64,000 bases of DNA, from the sequence record PV611058. One strand, written 5' to 3'. A model generated the notes under the pieces. The model was given only the letters and a program-made list of their open reading frames with translations, made no database searches and had not been told where the DNA came from. A program made the translations under genes and the position numbers. Source of the DNA: Escherichia phage WPEC3. Shown piece after piece: positions 5,800 through 7,205 of the stretch; within the stretch, counting starts at the first letter, position 1, and the number at the start of each line of letters is the position of its first letter.

Positions 5800-5807
5800 G
5801 ATAAATA
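5800..5807 (+). promoter_or_regulatory. late-promoter-like element GATAAATA upstream of paralog pair
   Basis: gATAAATAatatt about 47 nt upstream of ATG 5854; resembles the TATAAATA late elements elsewhere. Confidence 0.3.
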
Positions 5808-5853
5808 ATATTAAGCAGGGTGTTCCTGCACAAAATTTGACAAGGAGATTTTT

Positions 5854-6453
5854 ATGAGTCTTAATTCTTTTAACCGTAACTATGGTATGTCTGCTACTGC
5901 TCGTGAATACTGGGGTGGTAACAATGGTTTCGTAACCATCGTTGTTGATCTACCAGCAGATGTTGAAGTTGGTACTACCGCTGTTACTTCTGACGGTTCC
6001 GAAATTCAAGATGAAGCACTACAAACTGCAATCAGCAATGCTCAATACAACCAATTCATGATTACCCAACTACTACAACAACGTGCAGTACTAGTTACTA
6101 CTTCCGTACTAGCTCTAGACACCGCTGTTGTTATCCCTGCTGACTTTAAAACCGTTGGTGGTAACGTAATCGCGTTTGGTACTAGTGGTGCTGATGTTAC
6201 AGGTGGTGCTGGTTCTGTTGCTCTAACCTTCATCTGTGAACGTCAAGACGTATTTGACAAACAAGAAGTTCGCCCAGGTGCTGCTTACTCTGTTCCAGTT
6301 GATCCAACTGTTGAACTAGCTAAAGCTATTGCACAAGCTAAATTCTTCCGTACCAAATCTTATGTTGCTCTAGGTACTGATGGTGTTGGTGATGCTGCTG
6401 CCGCTGACGCTGTTGCAATTAAAGTTCGTGCTGCTCTACCAGTACAACTATAA
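5854..6453 (+). CDS. small Ala/Val/Thr-rich protein, paralog A of tandem pair (function unknown, probably abundant)
   Basis: Strong RBS AAGGAGA; shares QQRAVLVTTS and FICERQDVFDK blocks with the downstream gene. Confidence 0.65.
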   Translation: MSLNSFNRNYGMSATAREYWGGNNGFVTIVVDLPADVEVGTTAVTSDGSEIQDEALQTAISNAQYNQFMITQLLQQRAVLVTTSVLALDTAVVIPADFKTVGGNVIAFGTSGADVTGGAGSVALTFICERQDVFDKQEVRPGAAYSVPVDPTVELAKAIAQAKFFRTKSYVALGTDGVGDAAAADAVAIKVRAALPVQL

Positions 6454-6468
6454 TAGGGGGACTACAAT

Positions 6469-7158
6469 ATGTCTAATACTAATACTTCTTTTGAACGTAT
6501 CAATGGTTATTCCTTTGATAAAATTCTAGGTTACTTCTGTGGCAAAAACGCCCTAGCATCTATCGCAATTAGTAAAATTGGTAATGTTAACGTGCGTGTT
6601 ACTGGTGCAGTTGGTTCTTTCGCTGGTCTACAACGTTTCCTAAATACTGACGTAGCTGATGAAATCGTTGCATATCTAAACGAAAAAGGTATCATCCGTA
6701 TCGATGGTACTCCATTTGAAGCAGCAACTCTAGAAGCTGATTATAACGCTGCTTACGCTGCACAAACTAACGTTAAACGTATCGTTGATGTTGTTCAACA
6801 ACGTGCAGTTATCATCGCTACTTCCGAAATCGCTGGCAACGACGTTGAGCCATTTGCAGTTACTGGTTTTACCAACGCTGCTGACGGTATCCTAAGTGTT
6901 GGGTCTGTTGATATCGCTAGTGCTTCAGTAGTTACTTTCCTCGTTGAACGTGCTAACGTATTTGATAAAGATATTCAATCTTTCCAAGGCGTTCCAAGTA
7001 CTGAGATCGAAGAAGGCCGTCTACTAATTGATGACCTAACCGCAGTTCCACTACTCGCTAAAGATGGTGTTACTGAAGTTGTTCTACGTTCCCAAGCTGC
7101 TGATGCTGCTGGTGACTTCGGTATCAAACTATTCAAATTCATCCCAGCGATGGTTTAA
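6469..7158 (+). CDS. small Ala/Val/Thr-rich protein, paralog B of tandem pair
   Basis: Shares QQRAVIIATS and FLVERANVFDK with paralog A; followed by a strong terminator. Confidence 0.65.
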   Translation: MSNTNTSFERINGYSFDKILGYFCGKNALASIAISKIGNVNVRVTGAVGSFAGLQRFLNTDVADEIVAYLNEKGIIRIDGTPFEAATLEADYNAAYAAQTNVKRIVDVVQQRAVIIATSEIAGNDVEPFAVTGFTNAADGILSVGSVDIASASVVTFLVERANVFDKDIQSFQGVPSTEIEEGRLLIDDLTAVPLLAKDGVTEVVLRSQAADAAGDFGIKLFKFIPAMV

Positions 7159-7176
7159 TAAATTAAAGATAAAAGA

Positions 7177-7205
7177 AAAGGAGAGCTTTTGCTCTCCTTT
7201 TTTTA
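7177..7205. terminator. bidirectional rho-independent terminator (aaaGGAGAGC-tttt-GCTCTCCttttttt)
   Basis: Perfect GC-rich hairpin flanked by A-run and T-run between convergent genes. Confidence 0.7.

Follow-up and report, generated by a model that had tools for sequence, protein, structure and literature searches.

Two tandem genes of Escherichia phage WPEC3 (sequence record PV611058) are, on sequence comparison, true full-length paralogues, and mass spectrometry (MS) of their orthologues in RaK2, phAPEC6 and CBB supports the reading that their products are abundant components of the virion. The two proteins are proposed, with a probability of about 0.45, to coat the T=28 capsid as an outer cement layer. 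Already on record (RaK2 paper, 2013; PHROG 9326) are the pair itself, the paralogy of its members and their abundance in the virion. The codon-adaptation rank, the late-promoter-like motifs, the fold models, the case against a tail-tube role and the capsid-cement proposal are added here. The whole stretch of DNA that was analysed, 64,000 nucleotides in length, is referred to as the window, and the coordinates of the features are given in Table 1.

The window was assigned to a jumbo phage of Escherichia within the RaK2/121Q group. The 1.6 kb surrounding the pair was found to be 99.9% identical to phage BF17, 99.4% identical to fEgEco12 and about 82% identical to 121Q, phAPEC6 and G17. All of these phages are jumbo myoviruses of the RaK2 type, and their records measure about 350-385 kb. 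The neighbouring genes were found to fit this group and included those of an RNase H-type 5'-3' exonuclease, a GroES homologue and a gp43-like DNA polymerase, together with those of the gp23-like major capsid protein, the prohead protease and the portal protein. No match was obtained when the 64-kb window was scanned for Rfam families and tRNAs. The major capsid gene is followed directly downstream by an HNH-type endonuclease gene (16195-17292, minus strand), which is probably a homing endonuclease insertion. A run of 100 N at 3592-3691, inside a minus-strand open reading frame (3262-4125), was found to carry an identical 25-residue stretch on either side and looks like an assembly gap or a scaffolding duplication rather than biology.

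The first-pass annotation had described two neighbouring plus-strand genes of 199 and 229 residues, and both open reading frames were found at the positions listed in Table 1, separated by 15 nt and flanked by minus-strand genes, so that the pair does form the plus-strand island that had been described. The sequence blocks said to be shared by the two proteins were present as QQRAVLVTTS and FICERQDVFDK in gene 1 and as QQRAVIIATS and FLVERANVFDK in gene 2. Alanine and valine were the two most frequent residues in both proteins and threonine was among the commonest in gene 1, in agreement with the Ala/Val/Thr-rich composition reported earlier; both proteins were also found to be acidic and rather hydrophobic. 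A ribosome-binding site was visible ahead of each gene, as had been claimed, and gene 1 was found to end in the tandem stops TAA TAG. The island had further been said to end in a bidirectional terminator, and the hairpin downstream of gene 2 scored as a terminator on each strand. The stem of the hairpin in the 5'-UTR was conserved in 121Q and CBB with a different loop, and a similar element was present in the Vibrio phage; it is possibly an mRNA-stabilising 5' stem-loop, as judged from the sequence.

The convergent neighbour of the pair was found to encode a very acidic protein rich in Lys, Glu and Tyr. Its true start is probably an ATG (MAKKRF...) and not the listed TTG, because the match to PHROG 13349 begins at residue 9. 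The orthologue of this gene adjoins the pair in RaK2, 121Q and CBB, and a similar-sized gene occupies the same position in Vibrio phage 2.275.O and in a metagenomic contig.

Table 1. Positions of the gene pair, of the elements around it and of the late-promoter-like motifs in the window.
Feature	Position	Strand	Description
ATAAATAATAT	1639-1649	-	upstream of the homologue of RaK2 ORF112, annotated as virion structural protein
Distal late-promoter-like motif ATAAATAATAT	5738-5748	+	exact copy upstream of gene 1
Proximal late-promoter-like motif ATAAATAATAT	5801-5811	+	exact copy, 42 nt before the start codon of gene 1
5'-UTR hairpin	5815-5829	+	inverted repeat GCAGG-GTGTT-CCTGC just after the proximal ATAAATAATAT
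Shine-Dalgarno of gene 1	5842-5847	+	AAGGAG, 6 nt before ATG; read from the sequence
Gene 1	5854-6453	+	199 aa, 20.8 kDa, pI 4.5; orthologues RaK2 ORF107w, 121Q gp618, phAPEC6 gp210, CBB_271
Shine-Dalgarno-like element of gene 2	6456-6460	+	GGGGG, 8 nt before ATG; read from the sequence
Gene 2	6469-7158	+	229 aa, 24.3 kDa, pI 4.5; orthologues RaK2 ORF106w, 121Q gp617, phAPEC6 gp211, CBB_270
Bidirectional intrinsic terminator	7173-7204	both	14-pair stem, 5 G-C pairs, T-run; common to the pair and the convergent gene 7203-7955
Convergent neighbour gene	7203-7955	-	PHROG 13349 virion structural protein; orthologue of RaK2 ORF105 and 121Q gp616
ATAAATAATAT	18653-18663	-	upstream of the major capsid gene

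The two proteins had been described as a duplicated pair, and their similarity was found not to be a matter of chance, with a pairwise BLASTP E-value of 1e-6. A profile of gene 1-type sequences (44 sequences) matched a profile of gene 2-type sequences (78 sequences) with a probability of 98.8% and an E-value of 4.5e-17 over 190 columns, and the alignment was found to run end to end, from the N-terminal arm to the last strand. The positions N66, R77, S84, E129 and R130 (gene 1 numbering) were invariant in both lineages, and the main difference of gene 2 from gene 1 was an insertion of about 29 residues. Both proteins matched the 195-position profile of PHROG 9326, annotated "virion structural protein" (gene 1, E 2.6e-82, residues 1-199; gene 2, E 3.4e-81, residues 4-229). 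Searches of Pfam gave only sub-threshold noise for both proteins, and sequence searches of the PDB returned no match for the gene 1 protein and matches no better than chance for that of gene 2. The earlier remark that no T4 counterpart was apparent agrees with these searches, since neither protein was found to resemble T4 gp19 or any Pfam family.

The gene 1 protein was found to be 100% identical to the proteins of EC.P1, BF17 and fEgEco12. Its identity to 121Q gp618 was 80%, and its identity to the RaK2 protein was 75% in an alignment spanning 84% of its length. The family was found to be narrow: an exhaustive profile search yielded only 42 hits among 1.84 billion representatives, and the 73 phage records carrying it were all RaK2-like, with the addition of one Vibrio phage. 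No further paralogues of the pair were found in 112 kb of the WPEC3/fEgEco12 phage type. The tandem arrangement between the RNase H gene and a block of virion-protein and GroES genes was found in the window, 121Q, RaK2, CBB, Vibrio phage 2.275.O and a metagenomic contig, and the Vibrio phage was found to contain three tandem members instead of two (genes 488, 487 and 486; L004:1135-3206), with gene 488 matching the family profile at E 1.1e-11. Three metagenomic members of 290-300 residues (P0146, P0150 and P0151) were found to contain an extra domain of about 70-80 residues before the last strand, with repeated GGxGY-like motifs. This inserted domain had no Pfam match, and tblastn related it only weakly (E 9e-4) to a repeat of a cyanophage virion protein of 2406 residues. 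The single large hit of the profile search, of 1054 residues (P0158), was rejected as spurious; it is a repetitive laminin-G/Ig protein that was matched through the low-complexity stretch AEYNAEYAA.

The presence of the orthologues in purified virions was found in published work on three phages. In the RaK2 paper (2013), ORF106w and ORF107w were identified by MS/MS as abundant gel bands of the virion and were termed "two distantly related proteins"; both ran at their predicted masses and are thus apparently not cut by the prohead protease. The virion MS of phAPEC6 covered 69.8% of gp210 and 69.9% of gp211, compared with 74.9% of the capsid protein and 68% of the sheath, and that of CBB covered 91.3% of CBB_270, which is the upper limit of the coverages given for the CBB proteome, and 56.4% of CBB_271. 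An abundant virion component had been one of two candidate roles given for the pair, and the very high coverage of the orthologues in RaK2, phAPEC6 and CBB speaks for it.

The other candidate, an abundant early pair, found no support, because an ATAAATA-type late motif, shared with the capsid gene, precedes the genes and their products occur in the particle. Four exact copies of ATAAATAATAT were found in the window, with 0.16 expected, and all of them were intergenic and sense-upstream of virion genes. In 121Q and CBB, too, the orthologues are preceded by a double motif of this type. For CBB and GAP32, the CBB paper describes a putative late promoter made up of ATAAATA and a following A/T-rich stretch, resembling T4 TATAAATA, and ATAAATAATAT may be the mark of the strongest late promoters. 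The pair would then be a strongly transcribed late operon with a stabilising stem-loop at its 5' end. That the two genes are early or non-structural, or that their similarity is accidental, has a negligible probability in view of the virion proteomics in three phages, the late-type motifs and the profile-profile E-value of 4.5e-17.

The very regular codon choice noted in the first-pass annotation was borne out by two measures. The effective number of codons was 29.9 for gene 1 and 29.1 for gene 2, the lowest values among the 28 window genes examined, compared with 32.7 for the capsid gene. In codon adaptation, calculated with the capsid and sheath genes as reference set for 83 genes from the window and 48 kb of fEgEco12, the pair ranked first and second, above the capsid and sheath genes themselves, and this ranking was unchanged when the sheath gene alone was used as reference.

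The codon CTA was found to account for 12 of the 13 and 13 of the 15 leucines in the two pair proteins, 25 of 31 in the capsid gene and 46 of 66 in the sheath gene. CTA is the rarest leucine codon in E. coli. Its near-exclusive use was observed in the most codon-adapted genes, for example at 5854-7158, 17437-18612 and 8498-9229 in the window and at L003:15426-18089 in fEgEco12. The tRNAs reported for fEgEco12 are those for Ser (two), Met, Asn and Thr (two), without tRNA-Leu. Codon adaptation at the level of the capsid gene was also found for a virion structural protein of 281 residues (PHROG 15696; 20537-21382, minus strand) encoded between the protease and portal genes, and for a hypothetical protein of 102 residues in fEgEco12 (g290; L003:12576-12884, plus strand); both may be further high-copy products.

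The apparent copy number bears on the possibility that the pair proteins are located at the surface of the tail or neck, either as elongated decorations of the collar and distal tail or as anchors of the "hairy" whiskers. The orthologues are present in virions, and phAPEC6 carries elongated decoration proteins at two levels of the tail as well as fibre bases along the sheath. Tens of copies would suffice at such sites (12 per level), whereas the coverage and codon adaptation of the pair, which are only rough proxies for copy number, were at or above those of the capsid protein (1620 copies) and the sheath (150 copies). A tail-surface role therefore fits poorly, the apparent copy number being too high, and it is considered improbable.

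One member of the pair was suggested in the RaK2 genome paper to be the tail tube protein, on the basis of a size of 21-25 kDa, abundance and predicted beta-content, and the low MS coverage of the gp19-like genes in phAPEC6 (9-30%) is also in line with that suggestion. However, no Pfam or tube-PHROG match was found for the pair, the joint profile of the pair gave an hhalign probability of 0.1% against T4 gp19, and the predicted fold was not tube-like, with no tail-tube beta-sandwich. The pair is also not adjacent to the sheath gene, whereas the gp19 homologues are. In fEgEco12, three genes with a tail-tube annotation (g297-g299; L003:18477-21135) were found immediately after the sheath gene. 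Two of them matched PHROG 4542 at about 1e-80, and the third matched PHROG 13438 with weak matches to PHROG 4542 and PHROG 45. T4 gp19 itself was found to match PHROG 45 at 4e-63 and PHROG 4542 at 5e-10, and the three fEgEco12 genes are therefore regarded as genuine gp19 relatives in the T4 position. This link was drawn through the PHROG profiles, since hhalign of the gp19-like family (g297 relatives and g298) against the single T4 gp19 sequence and a PDB profile search with the family were uninformative. The first of the three ranked 9th of the 83 genes in codon adaptation and was the only strongly adapted one, and the other two may serve to initiate or terminate the tube or be minor components of it. 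Since gp19 relatives follow the sheath gene and the pair is unlike gp19 in both sequence and fold, a tail-tube role is rated as very improbable. The T4 gp19 family (PF06841, PHROG 45/4542) thus resembles the pair in size and abundance but differs from it in sequence, predicted fold and gene position.

The structures of both proteins were predicted as monomers with AlphaFold2 from an alignment of 123 sequences, which gave a pLDDT of 89.3 and a pTM of 0.84 for gene 1 and of 81.6 and 0.77 for gene 2. Both models were found to contain an alpha/beta sandwich, in which a 26-residue helix lies against a sheet made up of about five strands. The gene 1 model contained a strand, a long helix, three strands, a short helix, a helix and a strand, in this order, and the gene 2 model contained the same fold with the insertion of about 29 residues as two short helices. 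A Foldseek search of the PDB with the models gave nothing below E 0.05, and a fold search of BFVD gave only family members and unnamed proteins. The N-terminal 30 residues of gene 1 were found to be the most conserved stretch, with values of 0.82-0.93 per column against a mean of 0.68, and to include several positions conserved between both paralogues; the C-terminal strand of the pair proteins was also conserved. The first 20 or so residues of gene 1 were modelled with low confidence. The combination of high conservation and low model confidence suggests that the N-terminal arm becomes ordered on a conserved partner.

Such a partner would be the capsid shell in the proposal made here. In cryo-EM maps of phAPEC6 (10 Å) and 121Q, the T=28 shell is built of a 42-kDa gp23-like protein and covered by an elongated outer protein, which forms a hexagonal network, is paired across the local two-folds and has 1:1 density. 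Further proteins are present at the hexamer centres and vertices. The capsid protein of WPEC3 (391 aa; 17437-18612, minus strand) was found to align with T4 gp23 in two blocks, which are separated by 32 residues in WPEC3 and by 102 in T4, that is, about 70 fewer. The gp23 region between the aligned blocks contributes the insertion domain of T4, which stabilises the lattice. The WPEC3 capsid protein was found to be 90% identical to that of a Yersinia phage of another genus, and across such genera the pair proteins were about 60% identical.

In the proposed scheme the two proteins would be produced from one late operon, in which gene 1 and gene 2 are preceded by two late-promoter-like motifs and a 5' hairpin and followed by the terminator. 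[quoted passage not shown] They would thereby act as a cement replacing the insertion domain of T4 gp23, which is absent from the compact capsid protein. An external cement fits best with the late expression, the abundance at or above that of the capsid protein, the apparent lack of processing, the acidity, the conserved arm and the extra domain of the distant members; the resemblance of this domain to a repeat of a cyanophage virion protein suggests, at the level of sequence, a surface-exposed position. Against the cement reading, the ridge density could not be assigned by the phAPEC6 authors, who kept it possible that the ridge is a part of the capsid protein. Agrobacterium phage Atu_ph07 was found to have a similarly compact capsid protein (58% identical) without a detectable homologue of the pair, which could be explained by divergence, and given this phage the comparison of capsid-protein length with the presence of the family is not informative. 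The phiKp24 cryo-EM paper was considered as a comparison and set aside; that phage is an unrelated T=27 phage and has no bearing on the family.

The phages whose maps show the ridges also contain an inner body that would itself need hundreds of copies of small proteins, and in the main rival reading the pair would instead be internal head proteins that build this phiKZ-like "inner body" seen in the bubblegrams of 121Q and phAPEC6. Late expression and high abundance fit this location equally well, and a body of about 91 x 18 nm would require many copies of small proteins. The tandem paralogy of abundant head proteins recalls the inner-body families of phiKZ. In T4 and phiKZ, those core and inner-body proteins that are known undergo cleavage, and since the RaK2 orthologues gp106 and gp107 apparently do not, an inner-body role is rated as unlikely. 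The acidity of the pair also counts against this role, a pI of 4.5 arguing against a DNA-condensing function, as do the absence of any phiKZ protein from the matches of the PDB and BFVD fold searches and the resemblance of the added domain of the distant members to an external virion protein.

The identity of the proteins that decorate or stabilise the capsids of jumbo phages is a question raised explicitly in the structural papers on 121Q and phAPEC6, and the pair is an obvious high-copy candidate for this decoration. The published tail-tube alternative can be set aside, and confident models are available for map fitting. At rather less than even odds, the pair may represent a new class of cement fold, a heteromeric, arm-anchored lattice that would stabilise the unusually large T=28 shell of RaK2-like phages and form the ridges of 121Q and phAPEC6, and in that case the ridge density of both maps would gain an assignment. 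As a surface cement, the two proteins would lend themselves naturally to use as display scaffolds on a capsid of very large size; failing that, the pair is an ordinary, already catalogued structural gene pair.

Among the known systems, the family of PHROG 9326 and RaK2 ORF107w-ORF106w, which includes GAP32 gp265/gp264, is the same family as the pair, with nothing essential different. The inner-body families of phiKZ resemble the pair as abundant paralogous head proteins of a phage with an inner body, whereas no homology between them was detected, the RaK2 orthologues appear to be unprocessed and the pair is acidic. No sequence or fold similarity to known capsid decoration proteins was found in the Pfam, PDB and Foldseek searches. 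T4 Soc and Hoc, lambda gpD and Dec of phage L are used as a working analogy; like the pair they are small, very abundant, late and apparently not proteolytically processed, and the pair would, in this analogy, bind the exterior of an HK97-fold shell, here made of a gp23-like protein without the T4 insertion region, but each of them is a single protein, whereas two paralogues are present here, for which the site on the capsid is a proposal.
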